From positions 1-34,110 of the forward strand of contig CAZELC010000001.1 of the NCBI GenBank assembly GCA_964512865.1: DNA of 34,110 bases, given 5' to 3'. The position numbers were made by a program, and so were the translations under genes. The stretch is from an uncultured Bacteroidales bacterium. Its GTDB lineage: Bacteria; Bacteroidota; Bacteroidia; Bacteroidales; CAIWKO01. Below, piece by piece: positions 3,044-24,152 of the stretch (position 1 is its first letter; every line of letters begins with the position of its first letter). Under the pieces are notes generated by a model. It did not search any database and was not told where the DNA came from. It saw nothing but the letters and a program-made list of their open reading frames with translations.

Positions 3044-5008
3044 TTAGTTCTTGATAATCTCTACAAGTTCTTTTAATGCGATATTACCAAGCGACATTTC
3101 ATAAAGTTCTCCCATTATCCAGTTAGGACCAACCTCCGGATTTTTTGAAGTTCTAATTTTAGAGTATTTTTCCTTAAGAAAAGGAATATGCGATATTATT
3201 TCCTCTTTGGAGATACGCTTGAATTTAATACTGGTAAGTATTGATTCAAAGTCCATTTTTGGGTGTTCATAAATAACAGGCATCATTTTTCCGGCAAGTG
3301 CATAATCTATATTGTTTTTTTTGAGAAACAGGAAGAGATCAAAAACCTGACTATATTTAAATTCGCTTCCCTGCTGATAATGTCCTTCGATAAATTTAAG
3401 AGTATGACCAAAGAAAGAACCAATATACGATGGTTTAACATCAAGTTCATTAACAATCTTTTCAATAATCGGGAAAAGGTTATTTTTAAAAATATAAATA
3501 TGTGTATCTTCCGGGATATTCCAATCAACAAGCTGGTGATATCGTTGAATGACCTCAGAAGGAATATTTTTTCTAAGTTGCTCAATATAAGTGTTTTCAA
3601 GAGGAATTGGCTTTGAATCGGTATCAGGATACATACGGTCGGCACCCGGAAGTACTCTTTCAAATATTGTTGTCCCATTCTCAAATGATTTTCTTGTTTC
3701 ATTTGGAACGCCTTTAAATGCCATCTGACATCTTTCTTCAATTGTTTCGAGAGCAGTTTTTACATCAGCTTCGGGTCCCCAAAAAATAATTTGAGCATCA
3801 TCGGCAGCAGAATTAAGTAAATTATGAATTTTAATATAATCATCCGATGATATTTTCGGCTCAAATTCTTCGGAGTGCGACATATTTGGCTGTTCGAGAC
3901 AAGCCACAACTTTTAACCTTTCACTTATCTCATTAGCAAACATTTTTCCCGGTTGAGTAAAATGAGAAAGAACACCTTTAAATCCGGGAAGATTTACAAC
4001 AATAATTTTCCAGTTATTTTCTTTAGCTGCTTTTATTTCTTCTGTAGGGAAGTTAAAAGAATAAAAATCCATTTCCGAATGAGAAATTTTCCAGTTAGCA
4101 CCGTCGCCTAGTTTATTAGCTAAAATATCTTTTATCTGAAGAAGTGCCCATTGGCGATAACATTCATTATGAGTAAGTTCCGGTATCCATCTGGTATGCG
4201 CAACGCCTTTAATTTCAACTCTGGTTCCGCCTTTACAGCTAACATTAACATCTTCTCTTCCTGCTCCAATTCCTGTTCTTACTTTTTCAGTACTTCTGTT
4301 TAAGAAACGAATATAATTGCATGCTTCTTTGACTTCATCAGGATTTACCATATCCGGATAGGTAACAGTTTCAATCAGCGGCATTCCCAATCGGTCGGTT
4401 TGGTAAATTCTGTTGTGACCGATATCGCTAACTTCGCGGCAAGAATCTTCCTCAAGGCTGAGTTGTATAAGTCTCACTTTTTTGTTTTTCAATGGGATTT
4501 CACCTTCAACTCCAATAATAGCTGTTCTCTGAAACCCTGTAGGGATACTGCCATCAAGATATTGTTTTCTTGTAATATGAACTTCGCCTACGATGTTCAT
4601 TTTTGAAAGAAGTGAAATTTCTATAGCAATTCCGAGGGCTTCTCTGTTTAAAGGAAACGGAGGTGTATCATCCACTTCGTAAGTACAAGTAGTTTCATTT
4701 TTTATATGATATACAATATTCTTTCTTGTTTTAAATTCCATAAGAGCAGTACCGTCATATTCACCAAGTTCGCTCAGAGTAGGTCTCATGTGACGAATAA
4801 CTTCTGCATCGTAGTTATCGAATTTATGGAATTTTCCTGCAGGACAGTGGCAGAATAATTTTTCTTTGGTAAGAAGCTGTTGGTGAACTTCAAGACCTGA
4901 TTTGAAGCCAATCCTGTCGTAATCTGCTTGAGTTGCAAGTTTGCGTGGCACATAACCAATTTTCTTCTTAGATTCTTCGTAATTCTGTTTTGGATCGAAA
5001 TTATTCAT
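3044..5008 (-). CDS. gatE: Glu-tRNA(Gln) amidotransferase subunit E (archaeal-type GatE)
   Basis: 654 aa. The N-terminus 'DYDRIGFKSGLEVHQQLLTKEKLFCHCP' is the GatB/GatE signature with the HQQL variant. The length and a large internal insertion exceed what is expected for bacterial GatB. It is paired with gatD. Confidence 0.85.
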   Translation of the reverse strand: MNNFDPKQNYEESKKKIGYVPRKLATQADYDRIGFKSGLEVHQQLLTKEKLFCHCPAGKFHKFDNYDAEVIRHMRPTLSELGEYDGTALMEFKTRKNIVYHIKNETTCTYEVDDTPPFPLNREALGIAIEISLLSKMNIVGEVHITRKQYLDGSIPTGFQRTAIIGVEGEIPLKNKKVRLIQLSLEEDSCREVSDIGHNRIYQTDRLGMPLIETVTYPDMVNPDEVKEACNYIRFLNRSTEKVRTGIGAGREDVNVSCKGGTRVEIKGVAHTRWIPELTHNECYRQWALLQIKDILANKLGDGANWKISHSEMDFYSFNFPTEEIKAAKENNWKIIVVNLPGFKGVLSHFTQPGKMFANEISERLKVVACLEQPNMSHSEEFEPKISSDDYIKIHNLLNSAADDAQIIFWGPEADVKTALETIEERCQMAFKGVPNETRKSFENGTTIFERVLPGADRMYPDTDSKPIPLENTYIEQLRKNIPSEVIQRYHQLVDWNIPEDTHIYIFKNNLFPIIEKIVNELDVKPSYIGSFFGHTLKFIEGHYQQGSEFKYSQVFDLFLFLKKNNIDYALAGKMMPVIYEHPKMDFESILTSIKFKRISKEEIISHIPFLKEKYSKIRTSKNPEVGPNWIMGELYEMSLGNIALKELVEIIKN

Positions 5009-12586: not shown

Positions 12587-12598
12587 CCTGTTGATATA

Positions 12599-12919
12599 TT
12601 AAATAATTACTGTCGTATTAAGAGTTTGTCCCGGGCTGACTGTGGTAAGATCGCTGCTGGTGTATGATCCGGCGACAGTAATTGAATATGAACCGGCCTC
12701 AATATCACTAAAGACAGCCACTCCATCCGAACCTGTTGTTTTATTGTAGGTCAAAGTAGAACCGCTTTTATTAATCTGAACATTTAATCCGTTTTGTTTA
12801 ATAAGATTAGCGCTCATTACTGTAATTTTAAGTGTTGCTGTTGTTTTTTCTTTTTCGCATTGTACAAAAAGGCTTACATAAAGCAATGACAAGATAATAA
12901 GCAGGACTTTTGTCTTCAT
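12599..12919 (-). CDS. Small lipoprotein with carboxypeptidase-regulatory-like (Ig-like beta-sandwich) domain
   Basis: 106 aa with lipobox 'LFVQC'. 'TGSDGVAVFSDIEAGSYSITV' is typical of CarboxypepD_reg-like domains. It lies 12 nt upstream of 11255..12586. Confidence 0.7.
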   Translation of the reverse strand: MKTKVLLIILSLLYVSLFVQCEKEKTTATLKITVMSANLIKQNGLNVQINKSGSTLTYNKTTGSDGVAVFSDIEAGSYSITVAGSYTSSDLTTVSPGQTLNTTVII

Positions 12920-13218
12920 TATATTTATTTTAATTTATACTGACCAGATTAACAAAAGGGTAAAAGCAGCGTAGATTGCGATACTTAGTAAATGGAATGC
13001 TCAGAAATCCTAAATCTATTTAATAAGTTTTTTAGGAATAAGAAACCTTAACAAAAAAATTATTAATAGTTTATGGTATAAATATATACTAAATCTTCTT
13101 TAAAAAAAATTTTATTTTAAAAAACTTCATTCTCCTGAAACTTAAAAACTAATATAAGCCGGCAATAATAATAAATTAGCTTACACCACCAGATTTCCTA
13201 AATTACAACAATTAATTA

Positions 13219-13250
13219 TTTGCCTTTTAATTTTAACAACTGTATATTTG
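13219..13250 (+). promoter_or_regulatory. Bacteroidota-type promoter (-33 TTTG, -7 TAtaTTTG) for the AsmA-family gene
   Basis: TTTG at 13219-13222 and TATATTTG at 13243-13250, separated by 20 nt. The ATG is at 13282. Confidence 0.45.
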
Positions 13251-13281
13251 AAAACTATTTTAAAAACAAAACCTAAAATAT

Positions 13282-16095
13282 ATGAAAGCTAAAAAGATCC
13301 TCAAAAAGAGCCTTAAATGGTTAGGGATATTTATTTTATTTCTGATATTGATGGCAATTATTCTGCCTGTTGTTTTCAAGAAACAGATTGTGGAAGCAGT
13401 AAAGACTGAAATTAACAATTCCATAAATGCTAAAGTGGATTTCAAGGATTATCACCTTACCATGTTCAGAAATTTCCCAAACCTTACACTTGGGCTGGAT
13501 GATCTTACGGTTGTAGGTGTTAAAGAGTTTGATAAAGACACATTGGCAAATGTCAAAAAGATTAGAGTTACAATTGGGCTTTTCAGCGTTATTAAAGGCG
13601 ACCAGTATAATATAAGAAAAATATCCATCAACGATTCAAAGATAAAACTTAAAGTACTAAAAGGCGGCAAGGCTAACTGGGATATAGCCAAAGCTTCTGC
13701 CGACACCACTAAAAAAGCCGAGCCTGCCAAACCGTCAACATTCAAACTTTCCCTTAATAAGCTTGAAATAGTTAACTCTACGATATTTTATGATGATATG
13801 GATGGTGATATGCATGCAAGTATTAAACGCTTAGACCATGAACTCAGTGGTGATTTAAGTGCAGATTTCACGTCTCTTAAAACAAAGACAACAATTGACA
13901 CTGTTAACTTTAGTTATGGTGGAGTCACATATCTTAAAAAAGCCAATATTTCACTAAAGGCAGATATAGATGCCGATCTTAAAAATTCAAAATATACTTT
14001 CAAAGAAAATGAATTCATGCTTAACAACCTCTTTCTCGGCTTTGACGGATGGATAGCCATGCCAAAAGAAGATATTGAGATGGACATTAAATTCAACACG
14101 AAAAAGACCGAATTCAAAAATATATTGTCTCTTGTTCCGGCAGTTTACTCTAAGAGTTTTGATAAGGTGGAAGCAAAAGGAAAGCTGGCACTCGACGGCT
14201 ATTTAAAAGGTATTTATAATGAAAAACGAATTCCCGCTTTTGCACTTAATCTGCTTGTTGAAAATGCCATGTTTAAATATCCCGATCTTCCAAAAGCAGT
14301 GAACAATATCAATCTCGATTTGAAGGTGAGCAATAAGGATGGAAAAACTGACAATACTATTATCGATATCAAAAAACTGCATCTTGAAATGGGTAGCAAT
14401 CCTGCCGATATTAAGATGCTTGTTACAACACCGGTTTCTGATCCAAATATTAACGGAGCAATAAAAATTAAACTTAACCTTGCAGAAGTAAAACAGTTTT
14501 ATCCTATGGAAGCTACCGACCAGCTTAACGGAAACGTGAAGGCCGATATTGCACTTAAGGGCAAATTATCTTCCATAGAAAAAAAGAAATATGAGGACTT
14601 TGAAGCTAAGGGTGAAGTTGGAATTTCGAATATGTCATACAAAAGCAAAGATTTTCCAATGGGAGTTATAATTAATGAAATAAAAATGCTTTTCTCACCG
14701 GCATTTGTCGATATGCCTATTTGTAATCTGAAAATAGGAAAATCAGACATTGCTGCAAAAGGAAAACTTGACAACCTGTTATTTTATGTTTTCAAAAATG
14801 AACTGCTTAAAGGGAGCTTCGAAACCAAATCAACATTGCTTGATCTTAACGAGTTCATGACCGACTCAGGCAACAAGGAAGCAGTGTCTGCAAACAATAC
14901 AGAGAAATCATCAGGTATTACTGCAATTGAGGTTCCGGCAAATCTCGACTTATCACTCAGGTCATCCTTCGGAAGAATTTTATATGACAACCTTGATATG
15001 TCAAATGTTCTTGGAATTATTAAGCTTAATAATCGCAAACTCAGCCTTGAAACATTTAAAATGAACATTCTTGGAGGTGGGCTTACCGTTAACGGTTACT
15101 ATAGCACACAAAAAGCAGAGCCACAGGTTGATTTCAACCTCGACATCACCAATTTTGATATACCGCAAACCTGGAAAACTTTTGTAACTGTTCAGAAACT
15201 TGCTCCGGTTGCTGAAAAATGCAGTGGAAAGTTCTCAGCAAAAATGAAACTTAACTCTTTGTTTGACGGTAAGATGAACCCGCAATATAACAGTATGAAC
15301 GGAAGTGGTGCACTTAGCGCTAATAACCTATCTGTTAAAGGCTTCGAACCTCTAAATAAAATTGCTGACGCACTCAAGATAGACAAATTCAGAAACCTTG
15401 GTATCGACAAGGTAGCATTGAACTTCAGCTTTGCAAACGGTAAAGTAGAAGTTAAGCCATATTCATTTACTTTCGAAAAAATAAAAACAACAATTAGCGG
15501 GTGGAACTCACTTGACCAAAGTATAAGCTATGACGTTGTCATGGAAATACCTCGCGAACTATTTGGAGGCGCTGCCAACGGTGTTCTTAATGATATGGTC
15601 AGCAAGGCAAACAGCAACGGGTTAAATATCCAACCCGGAAATGTTATTATTGTTGCAGCAAAGATTGGTGGGACAATAACAAAACCTACAATTTCGACTA
15701 ATATTAAAAAAAGTGTGAATGATGCAGTTAATGATCTCAAAAATCAGGTAATTGAAGAGGTAAAGGACAAAGTTAATCAGGAAGTGAAACAGGTTAAAGC
15801 CGATGTAGAAGCTAAGATTCAGAAGATACTTGCCGATGCCCAGGTTGCTGCCGATCAAATAAGAGCACAGGCAAAATCTGCAGGAGATGCTTTAATTGCA
15901 GAGGCCGACAAACAAGGCAAAGCGTTGGTGGATCAGGCAAATAATCCGATTACAAAAGCTGCCGCTAAAAAAACTGCCGAAAAACTTGTTGAGGAAGCAA
16001 CAAATAAATCCAATCAGCTTCAGCAGGAAGCAGAAGTTAAAGCCAATAAGGTGCTTGACGATGCCAGAAAAGAAGCTGAGAAATTACGACAGTAA
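13282..16095 (+). CDS. AsmA-family outer-membrane biogenesis protein with a K/A/E-rich C-terminal tail
   Basis: 937 aa with N-terminal anchor 'WLGIFILFLILMAIILPVVF' and a long beta-rich body typical of AsmA/TamB-like proteins. The last 127 aa form a low-complexity helical tail. Confidence 0.8.
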   Translation: MKAKKILKKSLKWLGIFILFLILMAIILPVVFKKQIVEAVKTEINNSINAKVDFKDYHLTMFRNFPNLTLGLDDLTVVGVKEFDKDTLANVKKIRVTIGLFSVIKGDQYNIRKISINDSKIKLKVLKGGKANWDIAKASADTTKKAEPAKPSTFKLSLNKLEIVNSTIFYDDMDGDMHASIKRLDHELSGDLSADFTSLKTKTTIDTVNFSYGGVTYLKKANISLKADIDADLKNSKYTFKENEFMLNNLFLGFDGWIAMPKEDIEMDIKFNTKKTEFKNILSLVPAVYSKSFDKVEAKGKLALDGYLKGIYNEKRIPAFALNLLVENAMFKYPDLPKAVNNINLDLKVSNKDGKTDNTIIDIKKLHLEMGSNPADIKMLVTTPVSDPNINGAIKIKLNLAEVKQFYPMEATDQLNGNVKADIALKGKLSSIEKKKYEDFEAKGEVGISNMSYKSKDFPMGVIINEIKMLFSPAFVDMPICNLKIGKSDIAAKGKLDNLLFYVFKNELLKGSFETKSTLLDLNEFMTDSGNKEAVSANNTEKSSGITAIEVPANLDLSLRSSFGRILYDNLDMSNVLGIIKLNNRKLSLETFKMNILGGGLTVNGYYSTQKAEPQVDFNLDITNFDIPQTWKTFVTVQKLAPVAEKCSGKFSAKMKLNSLFDGKMNPQYNSMNGSGALSANNLSVKGFEPLNKIADALKIDKFRNLGIDKVALNFSFANGKVEVKPYSFTFEKIKTTISGWNSLDQSISYDVVMEIPRELFGGAANGVLNDMVSKANSNGLNIQPGNVIIVAAKIGGTITKPTISTNIKKSVNDAVNDLKNQVIEEVKDKVNQEVKQVKADVEAKIQKILADAQVAADQIRAQAKSAGDALIAEADKQGKALVDQANNPITKAAAKKTAEKLVEEATNKSNQLQQEAEVKANKVLDDARKEAEKLRQ

Positions 16096-16266: not shown

Positions 16267-16274
16267 TACTTTTG
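16267..16274 (+). promoter_or_regulatory. -7 box TActTTTG upstream of uvrA
   Basis: TACTTTTG lies 30 nt upstream of the ATG at 16304. It is only 9 nt from the TTG at 16283, which argues against that start. Confidence 0.4.
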
Positions 16275-16303: not shown

Positions 16304-19171
16304 ATGAAACCCGCCGTTAAAACTCCTGTTGAAAATCCTGATATTGAAACATCTGAAAATGTTTTATCGGTTTACGGTGCAAGGGTGCATAACCTTAAAA
16401 ATATCGACCTTACAATACCTCGCGACAAACTCGTTGTAATTACAGGCTTAAGCGGCAGCGGAAAATCATCTCTTGCTTTCGATACCATTTATGCAGAGGG
16501 ACAAAGAAGTTATATGGAAACATTTTCCAATTACGCACGTCAGTTTATTGGTGATATGGAAAGACCTGACGTTGATAAAGTAACAGGGCTAAGTCCTGTT
16601 ATTGCAATAGAACAAAAATCAACAAACAAAAACCCTCGCTCGACTGTCGGGACCATTACAGAGATATATGACTTCTTAAGATTACTTTATGCAAGGGTTG
16701 CAGATGCATATTCTTATGTAACCGGTGAAAAAATGGTACGATATACGGAAAACCAGATAATTGACATCATCACCGAAAACTACTATAACAAAAACATAAG
16801 CATACTTGCTCCGAAGGTAAAAGGCCGCAAAGGACATTACCGTGAGCTTTTTGAACAGATAAGAAAACTTGGATTCATCAGAGTAAGAGTCGACGGGGAA
16901 ATAAAAGAACTCAGCTTCGGCATGCAACTCGACAGGTACAAAACTCATGATATTGAAATAGTAATTGACAGAATAAATGTAAGTGAAGGCGCCCGTCAGC
17001 GACTTGTTGCATCAGTACAGCTTGCCATGAAACAGGGAAAAGGTTCACTTATAGTGCTTAACGAAGAAGATAATAATATCAGATACCTAAGCCGCTCACT
17101 AATGTGCCCGGTTTCAGGAGTATCTTATGAAGAACCCGAGCCAAACTCATTTTCTTTTAATTCACCTTATGGTGCATGCAATAAATGTAACGGTTTAGGT
17201 GAAATATCAGAGATAGATATTGATAAGATAATCCCCGAAAAAAGAAAGACAATCAGAAACGGAGCTATCGCACCAATAGGAACATACCGAAACACCTGGA
17301 TATTTCATCAGATTGAAGCCATAGGGAAAAAATACGATTTTACCCTCGACACACCTGTATCAGATATCTCAGATGATGCAATAAATACAATACTTTACGG
17401 ATCAGATGAAATAATAAACTATAAGAACGAATATCTTGGAATTACTTCAACATATAAACTCAATTTCGAAGGTATCGTTAATTTTATTACAAACCAGAAC
17501 AGCGAAACCAATTCAAATGCAGTAAAAAAATGGGCAGGTAATTTCATGAACAAAAAAACCTGCCCTGAATGCCATGGAACAAGACTAAAGATAGAATCAA
17601 GGCATTTCAAAATCGCAGGGATGAATATAGCCGAAATGGCAAATATTGATCTTTACAGGTTTTATAATCTGTTTTGTGAACCGGAAAAGTTCCTCGATGC
17701 CAAAAAGATGAAGATAGGCAATGAGATTGCACGCGAGATAAAAACCAGAGCAAAATTTCTTCTTGATGTAGGTCTTGATTACCTTGTGCTGAACCGTGCA
17801 TCTGCGAGCCTTTCAGGTGGTGAATCGCAACGTATAAGACTTGCGACACAAATAGGCTCACAGCTGGTTGGTGTGCTTTATATACTCGACGAACCAAGCA
17901 TCGGGCTGCATCAGAGAGATAACCTTAAACTGATTGATTCTCTTAAACAGCTGAGAGATATAGGCAATTCGGTAATAGTTGTAGAGCACGACGAGGAAAT
18001 GATTTGTTCGGCCGACCATATTGTTGATGTCGGCCCGGGAGCAGGAATAAACGGAGGAAAGATTGTTGCTATTGGAACACCTGAGGAGATTAAAAAATTA
18101 AACACCATTACCGCCGACTATCTCAACAGAACAAAAATAATTGCAATTCCTGAAAAACGCCGTGAAGGATCAGGAAAAAACCTGATAATAAAAGGAGCTA
18201 CAGGGCATAATCTTAAAGATATTACCGTTAAGTTTCCTCTTGGAAAGATGATATGTGTAACGGGAGTATCTGGAAGCGGCAAATCATCATTGGTAAATGA
18301 AACCCTCTATCCTATTCTCAGTCATAAATTTTACCGTGCAGAAGCAAAACCGCTGCCATATAAAAGTATTGAAGGAATTGAAAATATAGACAAGGTAATA
18401 GAGATAGACCAGTCGCCGATAGGGAGAACACCAAGGTCGAACCCTGCAACTTACACAGGAGTGTTCGACGATATCCGTAAACTATTTGCAAATATTCCGG
18501 AGGCAAAGGTAAGAGGTTATCTTCCGGGAAGATTTTCATTCAATGTGCCGGGAGGCAGGTGTGAGACCTGCGGAGGTGCAGGACTGAGAACAATAGAAAT
18601 GAATTTTCTGCCTGATGTTTACGTGGTTTGCGAAAACTGCAACGGCAGAAGATATAACCGGGAAACATTAGAAATAAAATACAAAGGAAAATCAATCTCC
18701 GATGTGCTTGATATGAATATTGAAACAGCCGTTGAGTTTTTTGAAAACATTCCTTCCATTATACAGAAAATAAAAACACTCAGCGACGTAGGGCTTGGCT
18801 ATATAACTCTGGGGCAACAGTCAACAACACTTTCCGGCGGAGAAGCACAACGAGTTAAGCTTGCCACTGAGCTTTCGAAGAAAGACACGGGCAAAACCCT
18901 TTATATACTCGATGAACCAACGACAGGACTTCACTTTGAAGATGTCCGCATACTGATGAATGTTCTCAACAAACTTGTTGAAAGAGGCAATACCATAATA
19001 ATTATTGAGCATAATATGGATGTGGTAAAAGTATGCGATCATATAATTGATATCGGTCCTGAAGGCGGCGAGCGCGGCGGCGAGCTTATTTGTACAGGCA
19101 CCCCGGAAGAAGTTGCTAAAAGTAAGAAAGGATATACGGCGGAGTTTATTAAAAAGGCTCTGGTTCATTAG
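16304..19171 (+). CDS. uvrA: Excinuclease ABC subunit A
   Basis: Two ABC modules with Walker A 'GLSGSGKSS' and 'GVSGSGKSS' and signatures 'LSGGESQR' and 'LSGGEAQR'. Zinc-finger cysteines are 'CNKCNGLG', 'CPECHGTR' and 'CETCGGAG...CENCNGRR'. The listed ORF starts at TTG 16283, and I prefer the ATG at 16304. Confidence 0.95.
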
Positions 19172-19340
19172 TTCAATGTTCTGGGTTCATCAGGCTTTAG
19201 GTTTCTTTAGTTCAAAGTCTGTAACTGCGGTGACTTCGACTACCCTCAGTCCCCGGTATGAGTGGTTTGATGCGATGATGCAGTCAGACAGAGCCTTCAC
19301 CGAAGGTTAAGTGTCGAAACTGAGTTAAGACGGAAGAGAA
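19172..19340. other. GC-rich island A (candidate structured RNA or dispersed repeat element)
   Basis: Locally GC-rich in an AT-rich genome. Contains the hairpin CCTTC-ACC-GAAGG (19294-19306). TTCGAC (19235) and CTCAGT (19245) have perfect complements at 19313 and 19319. It shares a core with island B in inverted orientation. Confidence 0.4.
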
Positions 19341-19364
19341 GATGACTGATCAATAAGAAGGTTG

Positions 19365-19698
19365 CAAATGACAAGACCAGGTTTTCAAAAGACATGGATG
19401 ACCTTGCAATGAGCAATGTGCGGATTTAAAAAGGCATTTTAAGATTTCAAAAGGCGTTAATGTGGTTTTAAAAGGCATTAAGGATATTGCAAAAGACATG
19501 GTGCTATCTGCAATGGACATTTAGAATATTTCAATAGACAATGTTATACCTGCCAAAGACATTTGAACTATGCAAAAAACAATAGTAACAATTCAAAAGA
19601 CATTTAACACCCTGCAATAAGCATTTATCAGCTTACAATTGATGCTGAGGTCATTTCAATAAGTATCATACATTGTGCTATAGACATTAAACCTCGAT
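19365..19698. repeat. Degenerate tandem array, 16 units of ~21 bp, core CAAAAGACAT
   Basis: Core start positions are 19365, 19386, 19407, 19428, 19448, 19469, 19490, 19511, 19532, 19553, 19573, 19594, 19614, 19635, 19657 and 19678. Spacings are 20-22 nt and mostly 21. No ORF of 60 aa or more lies here. Confidence 0.85.
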
Positions 19699-19745
19699 AG
19701 TTTCAGGTGATTTTACTTTCTTTTTGCTCTATTATAAAAAAGATA

Positions 19746-19753
19746 TATATTTG
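19746..19753 (+). promoter_or_regulatory. -7 box TAtaTTTG upstream of the decayed beta-barrel gene
   Basis: TATATTTG lies 40 nt upstream of the ATG at 19793. Confidence 0.35.
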
Positions 19754-19792
19754 AAGTGGATAGTTTTTAATATCGGTCAAAAAAAAGCAGAA

Positions 19793-20347
19793 ATGAAAAA
19801 TATATAATTATCTTGATTCTTTTGTCGGTTATAATAGTAAAGCCTGTTATAGCTCAAACCGATTCGACTAAAGTTGAGAAGGTGAGAAAGAATGCAGTAT
19901 TTATACGAATATGTACAATTGCATTTTTAGGTATAAGTAATTCACTGGTGTTATATTCACTGTTTTATGAAAGAATTATTATTGCAAAAAATATATTTAA
20001 ATTCACAACAAGTATTGGTTTTTCTGTTTCAAAATCTTAAACATTACACCGTTAAATATAAATTTTATAGTTGGAAAGAAATTAGCTGGGAATCAGGAAT
20101 TGGGTTTAAATTTTATTGTTCATTTGAAAAGTCGAAAAGTTATACAAAATATATGTTTTTTACAATAAATCCTGTAGGCATAAGATATACAGGGAAAAAA
20201 GGATTCACTTCATTCTTTAAGTTTGGTTATTTTATAGGTGATTTGCATTTGTTTGGTGGTGAATTATTTTATGAAATTTATATAAAATCACAATACTTTT
20301 ATAGACTAGCTTAAACTATAAATTTTGGTTTCGGTTATTCATTTTAA
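19793..20347 (+). pseudogene. Frameshifted paralog of the 20763..21398 outer-membrane beta-barrel-like gene
   Basis: Homologous pieces lie in three frames. 'EKYIIILILLSVIIVKPVIAQ' matches 'KKYLIILFILSEIISKPVIAQ'. 'LNINFIVGKKLA' followed after a frameshift by 'WESGIGF' matches 'VNINFLLGKRIAWESGFGL'. 'INPVGIRYTGKKGF' matches 'VNPAGIRYTGKKGL'. The terminal 'TINFGFGYSF*' matches 'SINFNYGIGYSF*'. The ATG frame stops after 4 codons (MKNI*). Confidence 0.85.
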
Positions 20348-20359
20348 TAAAACAAATCT

Positions 20360-20752
20360 ATGAAATACAAACATTCTTATTTTAATATTATCTTATTGGT
20401 ATTTGTTTTAATTTTTTCAAATTCATGTAAGAAAGATTATCCCTCTGATATTCCTCAATGGATAAAAGAAAAAATAAAAATGTACAAGTATCTTGAAGAT
20501 GAAAACCACCTCAAAACACCTGTTAGCATTGTTGAGTATAAGGACAATAATGAAAACTGCATTTATCTTTTTGATTATAGCCCCATCAGCGGTGGTGTTG
20601 ACAGATATGATTATTATGATTCTTCAGGTTTCGAAATATGCAGTTGTATCTGGTGTTGGAATCCTGGGCAAGGTTGTACAATAAATGGTCAATTAATACA
20701 TGATGTCTATAAAGAATCACGAGTAATATGGAGCTGTAGGTTTTGTAACTAA
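20360..20752 (+). CDS. Hypothetical Cys-rich lipoprotein
   Basis: 130 aa with lipobox 'FSNSC'. The C-terminal half has 8 Cys ('EICSCIWCWNPGQGC', 'WSCRFCN'). Confidence 0.7.
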   Translation: MKYKHSYFNIILLVFVLIFSNSCKKDYPSDIPQWIKEKIKMYKYLEDENHLKTPVSIVEYKDNNENCIYLFDYSPISGGVDRYDYYDSSGFEICSCIWCWNPGQGCTINGQLIHDVYKESRVIWSCRFCN

Positions 20753-20762
20753 TTGTAAAAAT

Positions 20763-21398
20763 ATGGAGCTTATGAGATTTTCTGTCAAAAAATATTTAAT
20801 AATCTTATTTATTTTATCGGAAATAATATCAAAACCGGTTATAGCTCAAAATAATCCTGTTATAAAAAAGAAGAACAAGGTAATTGAGTTTACGAAGAGG
20901 TTATCTGGTCAGTATGATACGATTAACTTAGAAAAGGCAAAAAAGAATGCACTGTTTTTAAGACTGGGTACTATTTCATTTTTGGATGTAGCAGGTTCTC
21001 CAATTTTTTATTCACTCGATTATGAAAGGGTTTTATATGCAAAAAAGAAATTTAAGTGTATGGCAAGTGCAGGCCTTTCAGTTGGATGGTCTTATGCTGT
21101 TCCTGTAAATATAAATTTTCTATTGGGTAAAAGGATTGCTTGGGAATCAGGTTTTGGTTTAGCTTATTCAACACCTAATAATAAATACCAGTTTTATAAA
21201 TATTTTCTAGCTCTTTCTGTTAATCCTGCCGGAATAAGATATACAGGAAAAAAAGGACTTGCAATATTCTGGAAGCTTGGGTATTATATAGGTGACCTGC
21301 GGTGGATAGGAGGTGATATGTTTTATTATCAGCATGGAAGCATGACGGAACCAATAGCCAGTATTAATTTTAATTATGGGATAGGATATTCATTTTAA
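20763..21398 (+). CDS. Hypothetical outer-membrane beta-barrel-like protein
   Basis: 211 aa with signal peptide '...LIILFILSEIISKPVIAQ'. It has alternating aromatic and hydrophobic strands and the C-terminal 'NYGIGYSF' ending in Phe, as in OMP beta-signals. The start could also be the Met at 20772. Confidence 0.7.
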   Translation: MELMRFSVKKYLIILFILSEIISKPVIAQNNPVIKKKNKVIEFTKRLSGQYDTINLEKAKKNALFLRLGTISFLDVAGSPIFYSLDYERVLYAKKKFKCMASAGLSVGWSYAVPVNINFLLGKRIAWESGFGLAYSTPNNKYQFYKYFLALSVNPAGIRYTGKKGLAIFWKLGYYIGDLRWIGGDMFYYQHGSMTEPIASINFNYGIGYSF

Positions 21399-21425
21399 TG
21401 ATAATTAGTACAAATTCTTTTGTTC

Positions 21426-21506
21426 ATGAAAAGAAAACCTTTTTATTTGGCCATCATACTGTTTTCTTTAGCAATTTCGGTTTCCTGCAAATATGTGTTT
21501 CTGTAA
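21426..21506 (+). pseudogene. Truncated lipoprotein gene remnant (signal peptide only)
   Basis: Encodes 'MKRKPFYLAIILFSLAISVSCKYVFL*', a lipoprotein signal resembling the N-terminus of 20360..20752 and occupying the same position after the beta-barrel gene. The GC-rich island begins immediately after the stop. Confidence 0.55.
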
Positions 21507-21700
21507 TTGGTTTTCGGTAATCGGTTGTCGTTTGTTGGTAGGTTTAAACGGTATAGGTTTCTACACACTTCGGCTCAACTCAGCTACGGCTATGATCAAC
21601 GCTTAGGGTACAGGCTCTGCCTGACCGACACCGCCCACGAAAACTTGCAGCGGATAGCCAGACCCTACTCCGCCGCTTGGCGGTTAGGGGAGCGCTAAAA
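21507..21700. other. GC-rich island B (candidate structured RNA or inserted repeat element)
   Basis: A G/T-rich block is followed by a GC-rich block. Nested helices are possible: GGCTAT 21588-21593 with ATAGCC 21654-21659, CAGGC/GCCTG at 21611-21623, CCGC 21631-21634 with GCGG 21650-21653, and the hairpin CCCTA-CT-CCGCC-GCTT-GGCGG-T-TAGGG at 21663-21689. Confidence 0.4.
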
Positions 21701-21821
21701 GAATAAAGATTTTCAAATGATTTACAGAAAGATTAATTGATAAAAAAATGTAATTACTTGAAAACAGATGAATAATTTCTTATTTTTAGCATTTATTATA
21801 CCCATTAAAATATATTATCCT

Positions 21822-23090
21822 ATGAAAAAATCAGCAGTATTTCTTATTGTTTTTTTGGTAATTATTATTAATGAAAGAACTTATTCGCAGAATTATCTGA
21901 TAAGTTTTGCCGGTACAGGTGCTTCAACTACAGTTGATTCGGTTAAGGTTGAAAATCTTGCAAGGTGCACCGATACTGTTATTTTGGGAAGCGATATTCT
22001 TCAGCTGACCGGCGCTGTCGGATTAAATAATGCTTTGCAGAAAACTAATGACAGGCTTATGGTTTTTCCTAATCCTTCAACTGGAAACTGTTTTATTAAT
22101 ATTGAACAGTCGGAAGCCGGAAATGCATTGATTGAGATATTCGACATTACTGGAAAAATTATTGTGCAAAATAATGTATATCTGTTAAATGGCATCAATT
22201 GCTATTCTCTTGCCGGAGCAGGAACGGGAATTTATATTGTCAGTGTTAAATCCGACAAAGGTTATTTGTACTCAAAGCTGATATCTGCCAATGGCAGTAA
22301 CGGAAGTGAGAGGATAACTTTTGACAGGATATCTTCAATGGAAATTACACAGGATGAAAATAATAATTTGTTGAAAAAATATGAAAAAGGCAGGAAATCA
22401 ACTGTACAGATGTTATATTTTAATGGTGAAAGGTTGAAGTTTACTGGATATTCAGGAGGAATTTACCGTACTGTTTACATGCTGGTGCCAACTCAAAACG
22501 AGAGCATTACTTTTAATTTTGTGGCATGTACAGATATTGACGGAAACAATTATGCAGTTGTTCAGATAGGTACTCAAATATGGATGGCTGAGAATTTAAA
22601 GACAACTCATTACCGTAACGGGGATATTATTCAATATATTACTGATAATACTCAGTGGCAGAATATGGGTGCCGGTGCAAGATGCTATTATAATAATGAT
22701 TCTACTGCTTATGCGGGAATTTACGGGTGCTTTTACAATGGTTTTGCAGTTGGTGATACACGCATATTAGCGCCATTGGGATGGCATTGTCCTTCGCAAA
22801 CGGAATTCAATACACTTAGTTCTGCCCTTGGTGGAAGTGGTGGCGCAATAAAAGACCCTTGCTGTACATTGTGGACTACGCCAAACACCGGAGCAAACAA
22901 TTCAAGCGGATTTTCGGGGTTACCGTTAGGTTTCAGAAGTTACTACGGCTCATATATGTATTTTGCAACCAAATCAATTTATTGGGGAACCGGCGAAAGG
23001 ATTATGTGGGTAAACAACAATGATGCTGTATTAAATACCGGCGCTTCGGCTTTACAATACGGGCAATCGGTAAGGTGTATTAAGGATTAA
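21822..23090 (+). CDS. Secreted protein with internal T9SS-sorting-domain-like segment and C-terminal FISUMP (Fibrobacter succinogenes major paralogous) domain
   Basis: The listed ORF starts at 21768, but the Met at 21822 gives the signal peptide 'MKKSAVFLIVFLVIIINERTYSQ'. 'LMVFPNPSTGNCFINIE...IEIFDITGKII...GIYIVSVKSDKGYLYSKLI' matches the Por_Secre_tail pattern. The C-terminus 'GNNYAVVQIGTQIWMAENL...GWHCPSQTEFNTL...GFSGLPLGFR...VRCIKD' matches the FISUMP pattern (TIGR02145). Confidence 0.85.
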   Translation: MKKSAVFLIVFLVIIINERTYSQNYLISFAGTGASTTVDSVKVENLARCTDTVILGSDILQLTGAVGLNNALQKTNDRLMVFPNPSTGNCFINIEQSEAGNALIEIFDITGKIIVQNNVYLLNGINCYSLAGAGTGIYIVSVKSDKGYLYSKLISANGSNGSERITFDRISSMEITQDENNNLLKKYEKGRKSTVQMLYFNGERLKFTGYSGGIYRTVYMLVPTQNESITFNFVACTDIDGNNYAVVQIGTQIWMAENLKTTHYRNGDIIQYITDNTQWQNMGAGARCYYNNDSTAYAGIYGCFYNGFAVGDTRILAPLGWHCPSQTEFNTLSSALGGSGGAIKDPCCTLWTTPNTGANNSSGFSGLPLGFRSYYGSYMYFATKSIYWGTGERIMWVNNNDAVLNTGASALQYGQSVRCIKD

Positions 23091-23264
23091 AAACACAATA
23101 AGTACATATATCTTTTTTAACTCTTCTTATATTTTATAGGTTATCTTATTAAAAAGTATATCTTTGATGACTTTAGAAATTATTACTGCTTTTTTAAGAG
23201 TAATCTGTTTGAATAATATTTTATTAATCCATAAATTATCAGATAATTAATAAAAATTTGTGTC

Positions 23265-24152
23265 ATGAAGCAAAATTCTAATAAAACAGGGTTCTTATTA
23301 ATTGCAGTGTTTTCAGTTTTGTTTATTATTAATTGCAGTTGCAAAAAAGATGATAATACAAATACAAATAACACCACAACCACTGCTTCTGCCCCAACAG
23401 TTGCCACAACAGCGATATCCGACCGTACCGGAATTTCAGCTACTTCAGGCGGAACTGTTACATCTGATGGCGGAGCAACAGTAACTGCGCGTGGGGTTTG
23501 TTGGGGAATGTCATTAAATCCAACCATTAACGATAATAAAACAATTGATGGAAGCGGTACAGGCTTGTTTGTCAGTGCCATTACCGGATTGAATGTAGGG
23601 AAAACATATTATATAAGGGCATACGCCACCAATAGTTCAGGAACTGCCTATGGTAACAATGTACTTTTAGTTACGGGCATAGGTGCCAGTTATCAGGGTG
23701 GTGTTATTGCATATATTTTTCAGGCCGGAGATCCGGGATTTGTTGCTGGACAAACACATGGTCTTATTGTTACGGCAAATGATTTAAGTACCGGTGCCGA
23801 ATGGGGTTGTACCGGAACATTGATATCTGGTGCAAATATGACTGCTCTTGGAACAGGAATTCAAAACACAGCTTCAATTATTTCGGAATGCACAACCGCA
23901 GGAATAGCTGCAAAAATATGCAGTGATCTAAGTTTGGGAGGATATAATGACTGGTATTTACCTAATATATATGAGCTTGGACTGGTTCGTACAAATAAAG
24001 CGTCAATAGGAGTCTTTGCTTCGGATTATTATTGGTCGAGTTTACAATCGGATGCAAATTCGGCACACGCTGCAAATTTTGGCAGCGGTTCGGCAACAGC
24101 AATACATAATAAAAGCTTATCGCATTATATACGTGCGGTAAGGGTTTTTTAG
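23265..24152 (+). CDS. Surface lipoprotein with Ig/FN3-like domain and C-terminal DUF1566 (Lcl C-terminal) domain
   Basis: Lipobox 'IINCSC' is followed by a T/N-rich linker. 'TSGGTVTSDGGATVTARGVCWG...GKTYYIRAYATNSSGTAYG' is a domain commonly found ahead of FISUMP and DUF1566 modules. 'GGYNDWYLPNIYEL...YYWSS...IRAVRVF' is DUF1566-like. Confidence 0.8.
   Translation: MKQNSNKTGFLLIAVFSVLFIINCSCKKDDNTNTNNTTTTASAPTVATTAISDRTGISATSGGTVTSDGGATVTARGVCWGMSLNPTINDNKTIDGSGTGLFVSAITGLNVGKTYYIRAYATNSSGTAYGNNVLLVTGIGASYQGGVIAYIFQAGDPGFVAGQTHGLIVTANDLSTGAEWGCTGTLISGANMTALGTGIQNTASIISECTTAGIAAKICSDLSLGGYNDWYLPNIYELGLVRTNKASIGVFASDYYWSSLQSDANSAHAANFGSGSATAIHNKSLSHYIRAVRVF

Follow-up and report, generated by a model that had tools for sequence, protein, structure and literature searches.

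Sixteen helically phased 21-bp repeats with a conserved 13-nt core between uvrA and a surface-protein cluster in an uncultured Bacteroidales bacterium

Introduction

Why does a non-coding gap behind uvrA carry sixteen copies of one short sequence, spaced two helical turns apart? The gap lies in a 34,110-nt stretch of DNA (contig CAZELC010000001.1 of assembly GCA_964512865.1, from an uncultured Bacteroidales bacterium), which was analysed at its full length and is hereafter called the window. An original prediction, made from the DNA letters, had drawn attention to the repeats and had left their function open. Here we describe the array, its surroundings and its counterparts in other genomes, and weigh the explanations for it.

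Results

Genomic context

The host is a low-GC (about 34%), uncultured member of the Bacteroidota. The top named matches of its UvrA protein are Bacteroidota and Bacteroidales MAGs, the best identity outside its own cluster in a collection of 5.8 billion proteins is at most 73%, and Pfam found T9SS sorting domains in the window. The UvrA protein is identical to P0001 and P0127, and its gene is preceded by a TAnnTTTG box at 16267-16274. The array and the segments on its uvrA side are as follows.

13282-16095: AsmA-like gene (ORFs, Pfam)
16304-19171, + strand: uvrA, 955 aa, the upstream flank of the array (Pfam UvrA_inter, UvrA_DNA-bind, ABC_tran)
19172-19362: leader, from the uvrA stop to the first repeat unit; unique, non-coding, GC 0.45
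19363-19688, + strand: 16 direct repeats, each a 13-nt core plus a 7-8-nt unconserved spacer (register and column information)
19363-19375, 19384-19396, 19405-19417, 19426-19438, + strand: cores 1-4
19446-19458, 19467-19479, 19488-19500, 19509-19521, + strand: cores 5-8
19530-19542, 19551-19563, 19571-19583, 19592-19604, + strand: cores 9-12
19613-19625, 19634-19646, 19655-19667, 19676-19688, + strand: cores 13-16

The gap after uvrA spans 641 nt and is followed by a cluster that encodes small secreted or surface proteins (19793-24152). Along the gap, GC falls from 0.45 in the leader to 0.33 in the array and 0.22 in an AT-rich tail (19699-19812), and none of these three segments has a further copy in the 34-kb window. 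A terminator scan of 18900-20100 returned 0 intrinsic terminator sites after uvrA. DNA-binding proteins in the window are limited to two response regulators of LuxR/NarL type, located 18 kb and 9 kb from the array.

Units, registers and phasing

Lag identity and motif counts bore out the placement of the array after uvrA and its 16 units, both as originally predicted. Self-identity over 19351-19700 reaches 0.50 at a lag of 21 nt and 0.51 at a lag of 42 nt, against about 0.27 elsewhere, and this periodicity is the strongest anywhere in the 34-kb window. Allowing up to one mismatch, TKCAAWRGRCAW occurs 26 times in the window; 14 of these matches coincide with array units, in phase and on the + strand, and the remaining 12 are close to the 10.3 expected by chance in the window. 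Recounted core starts fall at 19365, 19386, 19407, 19428, 19448, 19469, 19490, 19511, 19532, 19553, 19573, 19594, 19615, 19636, 19657 and 19678, giving 13 intervals of 21 nt and two of 20 nt (mean 20.87). The 21- and 20-nt steps of the spacing list first given therefore stand, whereas its single 22-nt step was not found and the list departs from the recount at the 3' end. Tandem Repeats Finder, proposed as a check on period and copy number, reported only 19551-19609 with 2.9 copies, because the spacers are too diverged for the remainder to be seen.

Aligned in the all-unit register, the repeats have a conserved, asymmetric block of 13 nt, T-K-C-A-A-W-A-G-R-C-A-W-T, in place of the 10-nt core first proposed. 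Columns T4 and A8 are invariant, C6, A7, C13 and A14 are each kept in 14 of the 16 units, and the variable core columns 9, 12 and 15 are 3 nt apart; columns outside the block hold almost zero information. Two units are weak (14 and 15, with PWM scores of 6.7 and 10.0), the other units scoring 13.5-18.9. Units 4-6 have a GGC variant in common and their spacers are partly alike, which points back to the duplication history of the array.

Pairwise identity is 0.68 within the core and 0.32 in the spacers, where composition alone leads one to expect 0.27; the nucleotides between cores are thus unconserved, as had been stated. Neutral decay was simulated from 16 copies of a single 21-nt unit until mean identity had fallen to the value observed. 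In these simulations, a contiguous block of 13 columns with an excess of 0.36 appeared in 0 of 5000 star-tree runs and in 0.0002 (0.02%) of coalescent-tree runs. Uniform neutral decay of a tandem repeat does not yield such a contrast between core and spacer (P about 2e-4); the core is under position-specific constraint, and the spacers are random.

Spacing has been kept at 20-21 nt despite spacers that are saturated with substitutions. With a helical repeat of 10.5 bp per turn the 16 cores give a phase resultant of 0.89, and with 10.4 bp one of 0.98, whereas randomly spaced sites average 0.19 and reach 0.67 at most, in accord with the earlier view that a two-turn spacing sets the cores on the same face of the duplex. 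Constraint on the core, together with a spacer length that is held, fits phased protein-binding sites on duplex DNA. Because units 4-6 retain the GGC variant and similar spacers, the array most likely arose by tandem duplication, followed by long divergence under selection on core and spacing. The three assemblies known are near-identical and represent one strain, and the constraint on the core may be historical rather than current. In an approximate wedge-model calculation, predicted curvature over the first half of the array ranks among the highest 2.5% of windows. We rejected intrinsic curvature as the main explanation: it is raised, yet no outlier among windows.

Other 21-bp arrays

A degenerate three-unit pattern, for which about 0.6 chance matches were expected, hit at least 120 loci in genome contigs and 31 viral contigs. 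The genome matches listed are mostly intergenic and comprise 54 from the FCB group, 19 from Nostocales and 47 from other lineages. Nearly all matches listed are homogeneous 21-bp minisatellites, and the 31 viral ones are near-perfect tandem repeats. Since the free columns of the matched genome arrays hold no information, we regard these arrays as unrelated minisatellites caught by the degenerate pattern.

The spacers set the window array apart. Across the 71 listed genome arrays with 7 or more units, spacers are 0.51 to 1.0 identical (median 0.81), and adjacent spacers are at least 0.38 identical within every match listed, versus 0.12-0.5 in the window array. When adjacent spacers were required to differ by a purine/pyrimidine change, a metagenome scan yielded 9 contigs; the sole core-only run among them, 5 units long, belongs to one chromosomal locus upstream of a dxs-like gene (L163, L164 and L167). 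Among the roughly 160 arrays listed from genomes, viruses and metagenomes, none has 6 or more units with random spacers. The window array is accordingly no young minisatellite of the ordinary sort, and a homogeneous one (VNTR) was rejected on the near-random spacers of the array (0.32) and on the 2.9 copies that Tandem Repeats Finder reports. Judged from these collections, intergenic 21-bp minisatellites are commonplace, whereas the combination of 16 conserved cores with random spacers is not.

Coding and RNA tests

Two open reading frames touch the gap or the array.

19047-19310, + strand: 87-codon ORF, beginning within uvrA in another frame and ending short of the array
19350-19520, - strand: 56-codon ORF crossing eight units (mechanical ORF list)

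The gap had been described as free of any ORF of 60 aa or more; the 87-codon ORF, however, does enter the gap. The 56-codon ORF exists as described, and its frame slips against the repeat at a 20-nt unit. We judged it spurious, and the independent assembly L001 has no gene call at its position.

Each of six direct and six register-corrected frames contains 4-9 stops per roughly 112 codons, where about 8 are expected by our own estimate from base composition, and stop density over six frames equals the random expectation. These counts sustain the earlier statement that conservation is at the nucleotide level and that the array is non-coding. Pfam returned zero matches for conceptual translations of the array. 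The register-corrected +2 frame has the fewest stops (4) and reads as a coiled-coil-like heptad, which in the best register is [A/S]-[K/I/M]-[D/G/S]-[I/M/V]-x-x-hydrophobic. An intact or recently disabled heptad-repeat protein was rejected because the best frame is not significantly open and lacks third-position relaxation.

As for RNA, the fold z-score against shuffles is +1.53 for the + strand of the array, +0.58 for its - strand and -0.67 for the leader. Rfam searches of array and leader in gathering and E-value modes gave noise only. A structured RNA or known RNA family was thus rejected: the array folds no better than shuffles and has no Rfam match.

Replication, partition, mobile-element and CRISPR tests

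The original prediction hinted at an iteron-type origin or a partition centromere. The array does have an iteron-like trait, namely tandem direct repeats phased at about two helical turns. Among window ORFs of at least 110 aa, Pfam found no Rep, ParA, ParB or ParR, in agreement with the earlier remark that no replication, partition or binding-protein gene is nearby; nor did it find in the window the partition-gene families (ParA/ParM/TubZ with ParB/ParR/TubR) of a parC-, parS- or sopC-type system. With up to one mismatch, the DnaA box TTATCCACA occurs 5 times in the window, fewer than the 12 expected, and each occurrence is more than 3 kb from the array. Within the 34-kb window, cumulative GC skew is lowest at about 13 kb, where the coding strand switches in an ordinary divergent promoter region; on this scale the minimum lies away from the array.

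Accordingly, oriC was rejected on DnaA boxes below chance and a skew minimum away from the array. Searches with blastn in its distant mode against 72,556 plasmids and 50,697 phages gave no similarity, and plasmid or phage iterons were rejected on this ground. The hint of an origin or centromere finds neither DnaA boxes nor Rep or Par genes to go with it.

A search of 19000-20100 for terminal inverted repeats found only short, weak pairs, none of them bracketing an element; a MITE was rejected on this ground and on the single copy in the window. CRISPR arrays consist of repeats of 23-47 nt separated by spacers of like length, usually with cas genes near. The present array has a repeat of 13 nt and a spacer of 7-8 nt, Pfam found no cas families in the window, and a CRISPR array was rejected.

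Promoter and downstream cluster

Downstream of the array lie a promoter and the surface-protein cluster.

-33 element 19723-19726 and -7 box 19746-19753, + strand: Bacteroidota-type promoter TTTG-N19-TATATTTG (motif, likeness to L125)
19793-20314, + strand: disabled first cluster gene, a paralogue of 20763-21398 (ORFs, alignment with L125 and copy 2)
20360-24152, + strand: surface/secreted-protein cluster (Pfam, ORFs, L001 gene calls)
20360-20752, + strand: putative lipoprotein, 130 aa
20763-21398, + strand: 211-aa protein
21768-23090, + strand: Fib_succ_major protein, T9SS-sorted
23265-24152, + strand: Lcl_C protein

The promoter at 19723-19753 was named from what we take to be the Bacteroides consensus and spacing. 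A TAnnTTTG -7 box lies 20-70 nt before most window genes, including the first gene of the downstream cluster, and the 20-nt ATAAAAAAGATATATATTTG is identical before the homologous gene in L125. The last core of the array ends 35 nt before the -33 element. On either strand, no promoter box was found in or ahead of the array, and a standard sigma-70 promoter scan gave matches at chance level.

The first gene of the cluster is disabled. Its lesions are a TTA>TAA change at codon 5, a TGA at codon 8 and a frameshift between ORFs of 75 and 115 codons, and they recur in the independent assembly L001. Its position suggests that the array may be tied to the downstream cluster.

Relatives

The Logan assemblies L001 and L002, which show 1 mismatch over 11 kb, come from the same strain and, being near-identical, carry no evolutionary information; L170 and L171 are uninformative because they are too short or from the same strain. 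Only one close relative, the JGI contig L129, extends over this end of uvrA. Its uvrA aligns to that of the window without gaps at 84% nucleotide identity, and homology ends at window position 19162, by the uvrA stop. Leader and motif are both absent from the 372 nt that follow uvrA in L129.

On the other side of the array, L125-L127 carry members of the 211-aa gene family (77% nucleotide identity) and the common promoter. Homology with them starts at window position 19732, upstream of which they have a different, 185-nt duplication in place of the array. The array is absent from L125-L128, the relatives with the 211-aa gene, and UvrA relatives at 72-73% identity show no synteny, their neighbours being unrelated. 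A TTKCAATAA site present before the homologous clusters of both L125 and L128 was rejected, the motif being too frequent for meaning.

Compared with these relatives, the segment 19163-19731 is lineage-specific. The original prediction named two findings that would speak against it. An intact heptad-repeat gene at this locus was found in none of the relatives; the second, a strain-specific array that is neither transcribed nor bound, is borne out in part, since L129 and L125, the nearest relatives covered, lack the array. The time needed to randomise the spacers would be of about the same order as the split from L129, and an origin after that split is possible.

Discussion

Our tentative answer is that the array consists of 16 same-face sites on duplex DNA for a sequence-specific binding protein, set beside a promoter. 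The cautious view of the original prediction, which saw a phased array of sites for protein, is in this respect the best on offer. A contiguous, asymmetric, base-specific core of 13 bp suggests a binding site, so that the constraint on the core would be imposed by a protein. The two-turn spacing that has been kept suggests binding to duplex DNA, and the putative protein would act on DNA rather than RNA. The absence of coding and RNA-structure signals removes the main alternatives. Finally, a conserved promoter has its -33 element 35 bp beyond the end of the array, which suggests that promoter as the target.

On this basis, we propose a putative model for the array. Each two helical turns would present one asymmetric 13-bp site, and neighbouring protein units would line up along one helical face, where they could bind cooperatively. 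Fully occupied, they would coat about 330 bp, from about -70 to -395 relative to the promoter start (-7 box 19746-19753). The resulting nucleoprotein array might set the activity of the surface-protein cluster promoter, by repression or by activation, and it might also insulate that promoter from read-through out of the terminator-less uvrA.

Several observations keep us from a firmer statement. No candidate gene for the binding protein lies beside the array in the window, which counts against the binding-site reading, and outside the array the core motif occurs at chance level over the 34 kb, giving no sign of a regulon. To our knowledge, 16 sites are far more than known transcription regulators use. 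A regulatory device this large that is unconserved in relatives is suspect. It is because of the missing linked binder, the single locus in the window, the 16 copies, the disabled first gene and the lack of conservation that we hold the reading no more strongly.

A related explanation, which we consider possible but doubtful, is an iteron-like chromosomal array that acts without a linked partner gene. Its 16 sites would nucleate a filament or wrap of about 330 bp and serve as a switch of the surface operon or as a local organiser of the chromosome; a single site would have been amplified recently, and selection would then have acted on core and spacing alone. The main rival, somewhat unlikely in our view, is an old intergenic minisatellite of the BrickBuilt kind, in which a 21-bp unit was amplified by slippage, a common event in bacterial intergenic DNA, and is now decaying without function, the core being a relic of past constraint or of the amplification itself. 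Intergenic 21-bp arrays are very common across many phyla (at least 120 genome loci and 31 viral contigs), the present one is lineage-specific and beside a decaying gene, and the GGC variant and spacer likeness of units 4-6 would be expected of such a history. The 23-nt unit of BrickBuilt elements likewise mixes conserved and non-conserved positions (PMC4596501). Against this, neutral decay leaves no 13-column block (P about 2e-4 or less) and would not hold spacer length at 20-21 nt, and no match listed is alike at 6 or more units.

The other candidates fare worse. If transcription of uvrA runs on into a 3' UTR, 16 unstructured UUGCAAAAGACAU motifs might act as a sponge for a protein that binds single-stranded RNA, or flag the transcript for processing. 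For such a motif array, which we think quite unlikely, speak the lack of a terminator between uvrA and the array, the presence of every core on one strand, and a + strand that is less structured than shuffles (z = +1.5), so that the motifs would be accessible; but a promoter box is lacking both within the array and ahead of it, no Rfam family matches, relatives lack the array, and binding to single-stranded RNA needs no two-turn DNA spacing. The remnant of a heptad-repeat protein gene is very improbable. Its 21-nt unit would equal seven codons, the +2 frame is heptad-like with 4 stops, the variable core columns are 3 nt apart and the neighbour is a pseudogene. However, the 4-9 stops per frame compare with about 8 by our own estimate for random sequence, three of the four stops in the best frame fall at one heptad position, as expected from the DNA motif CATTTRA, and the conserved column C13 is a third codon position in that frame. 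In addition, the translations match no Pfam family, the leader has neither start codon nor open frame, and relatives have no gene at the position of the array. Equally remote is an iteron-type origin, a replication-control locus or a partition centromere, whether of the chromosome or of an integrated element. The 21-bp direct repeats with core and variable spacer, their high copy number and the adjacent AT-rich stretch resemble one; yet Rep and Par are absent (ORFs of at least 110 aa), DnaA boxes are below chance, GC skew is lowest at about 13 kb, the AT-rich stretch corresponds to a promoter conserved in L125, plasmid and phage similarity is nil, and the contig has housekeeping genes.

If the cores are bound by protein, as we tentatively propose, the locus would be an unusually long, regularly phased operator array in a bacterial chromosome, and a clean natural case of a regulatory array born from the tandem amplification of one site. 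With its 13-bp site in 16 copies, it would also offer a handle on a DNA-binding specificity in a lineage without cultured members. If the cores are unbound, the lesson would be that periodicity alone is no sign of an origin or centromere, 21-bp minisatellites being very common.

The array can be compared with several known systems. Iterons, as in R6K, RK2, pSC101 and P1 incA/incC, are direct repeats of about 17-22 bp with a period of about 21-23 bp; they have a conserved core and looser flanks, and their many copies are bound cooperatively on one face by one protein. They adjoin the gene for the Rep initiator, DnaA boxes and an unwinding element. In contrast, the present array has neither a Rep gene nor DnaA boxes nor an unwinding element beside it, its contig is chromosomal, and its 16 uninterrupted copies are above the usual number. 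Type II centromeres, such as parC of R1 and that of pSK41, are runs of direct repeats of 10-20 bp that are bound cooperatively. The binder of parC is a small repressor-like protein, whose superhelical complex overlaps the promoter, with parM-parR directly downstream; neither parM nor parR is present in the window.

Among operators, six dimers of BvgA bind on one helical face of Bordetella Pptx with centres 22 bp apart (PMC7250471). At Pptx and Pfha, several weak sites stretch upstream of the core promoter, and their cooperative filling sets its activity (PMC7250471). Each BvgA site is an inverted heptad occupied by a head-to-head dimer, and a promoter has 3-6 such sites, of which the last abuts the -35 element (PMC7250471), whereas the core of the array is asymmetric, its putative sites number 16, and the last ends 35 bp before the -33 element. 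LytTR regulators (AgrA, ComE, HdrR) recognise 9-bp direct repeats separated by 12 bp just before the promoter (PMC6193735). The 21-bp period is thus the same as that of the array; however, LytTR operators have two repeats at 4-11 bp upstream of -35 (PMC6193735), against 16 copies with the last 35 bp from -33. The array core is moreover unrelated to the published boxes of ACCNCTTA type, and Pfam found no LytTR gene in the window.

BrickBuilt elements of Porphyromonas gingivalis are intergenic and consist of a tandem unit of about 23 nt in up to about 23 copies (PMC4596501). Their units have conserved and non-conserved positions, they are flanked by a leader and a tail, they often lie near genes for T9SS cargo, and promoter activity has been reported for them (PMC4596501). 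Similarly, the array is intergenic and has a tandem unit of about 21 nt with conserved and variable positions. Divergence among BrickBuilt units is 0-11%, the elements have terminal inverted repeats, and a genome holds 19 dispersed copies (PMC4596501); the array, in contrast, has randomised spacers, no inverted ends and one copy in 34 kb. Taken together, the array is a set of iteron-like or operator-like phased direct repeats that is comparable to the intergenic minisatellites of Bacteroidota.

Other features of the window

Several features of the window lie outside the array of 16 phased 21-bp repeats (19363-19688), and are as follows:

1606-2991 and 3044-5008, both minus strand: adjacent gene pair that scores as archaeal-type GatD and GatE
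12587-13281: switch of gene strand from minus to plus, coinciding with the cumulative GC skew minimum
about 12606-12919, minus strand: small gene occupying part of the gap at the strand switch
19793-20314 and 20763-21398: tandem paralogues encoding a lineage-specific 211-aa secreted protein, the first copy disabled

The assignment of the GatD/GatE pair is based on profile scores of 504 bits against a cut-off of 310 for the GatD model NF003217, and 467 bits against a cut-off of 456 for the GatE model NF003107. Such an archaeal-type pair is unusual in a contig of otherwise Bacteroidota appearance. The region of the strand switch looks origin-like; a search for DnaA boxes found none at this site. 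Within the C-terminal part of an AsmA-like gene, a period of 33 nt (11 codons) is seen at 15650-15900, and this stretch gives a DivIVA-like Pfam match.

A search of 5.8 billion proteins found only five homologues of the 211-aa protein. The upstream gene copy in the window carries a frameshift in addition to TAA in place of TTA at codon 5 and TGA at codon 8, and the same lesions are present in the independent same-strain assembly L001. The promoter of this disabled copy is retained, and is identical to that in L125, a relative without the array. Upstream of the homologous gene in L125 is a direct duplication of 185 nt (L125:9400-9760), each copy of which contains three TGCAATAAT motifs; the 74-codon minus-strand ORF called in this region is probably spurious.

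The array and other 21-bp arrays

L002, a same-strain Logan assembly from ERR3438385, terminates at window position 19467, within the sixth unit of the array. As the units are too diverged to have any 31-mers in common, this end may stem from a variant or from a drop in coverage in that sample.

Pattern scans revealed further 21-bp arrays. Among the matches listed, many Nostocales genomes, together with one from the Chroococcales, carry the intergenic repeat TTCAATAAACRACNRCCCRAA in runs of 5-13 units (L005, L015, L057, L066, L074, L085, L086, L090, L092, L093, L095, L096, L104, L105, L108 and L121); this repeat looks like a clade-wide, dispersed minisatellite family. In each of two other genomes, Chitinophagaceae UBA1931 and Bacteroidetes WY4.bin70, arrays of one 21-bp family occur at two or three separate loci (L029:1516-1767, L055:24-254; L022, L024, L120), with homologous flanks at the UBA1931 loci. 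Thus, arrays of this kind can be dispersed elements. In three JGI metagenomes (L163:4440-4775, L164 and L167), two different arrays adjoin each other upstream of a dxs-like gene. The first consists of about eight homogeneous units of TTYATCACGATGGTCGATATT, and the second of five units sharing an invariant TTAAAATAGCAT core separated by unrelated spacers, which is the only core-only run found besides the window array.
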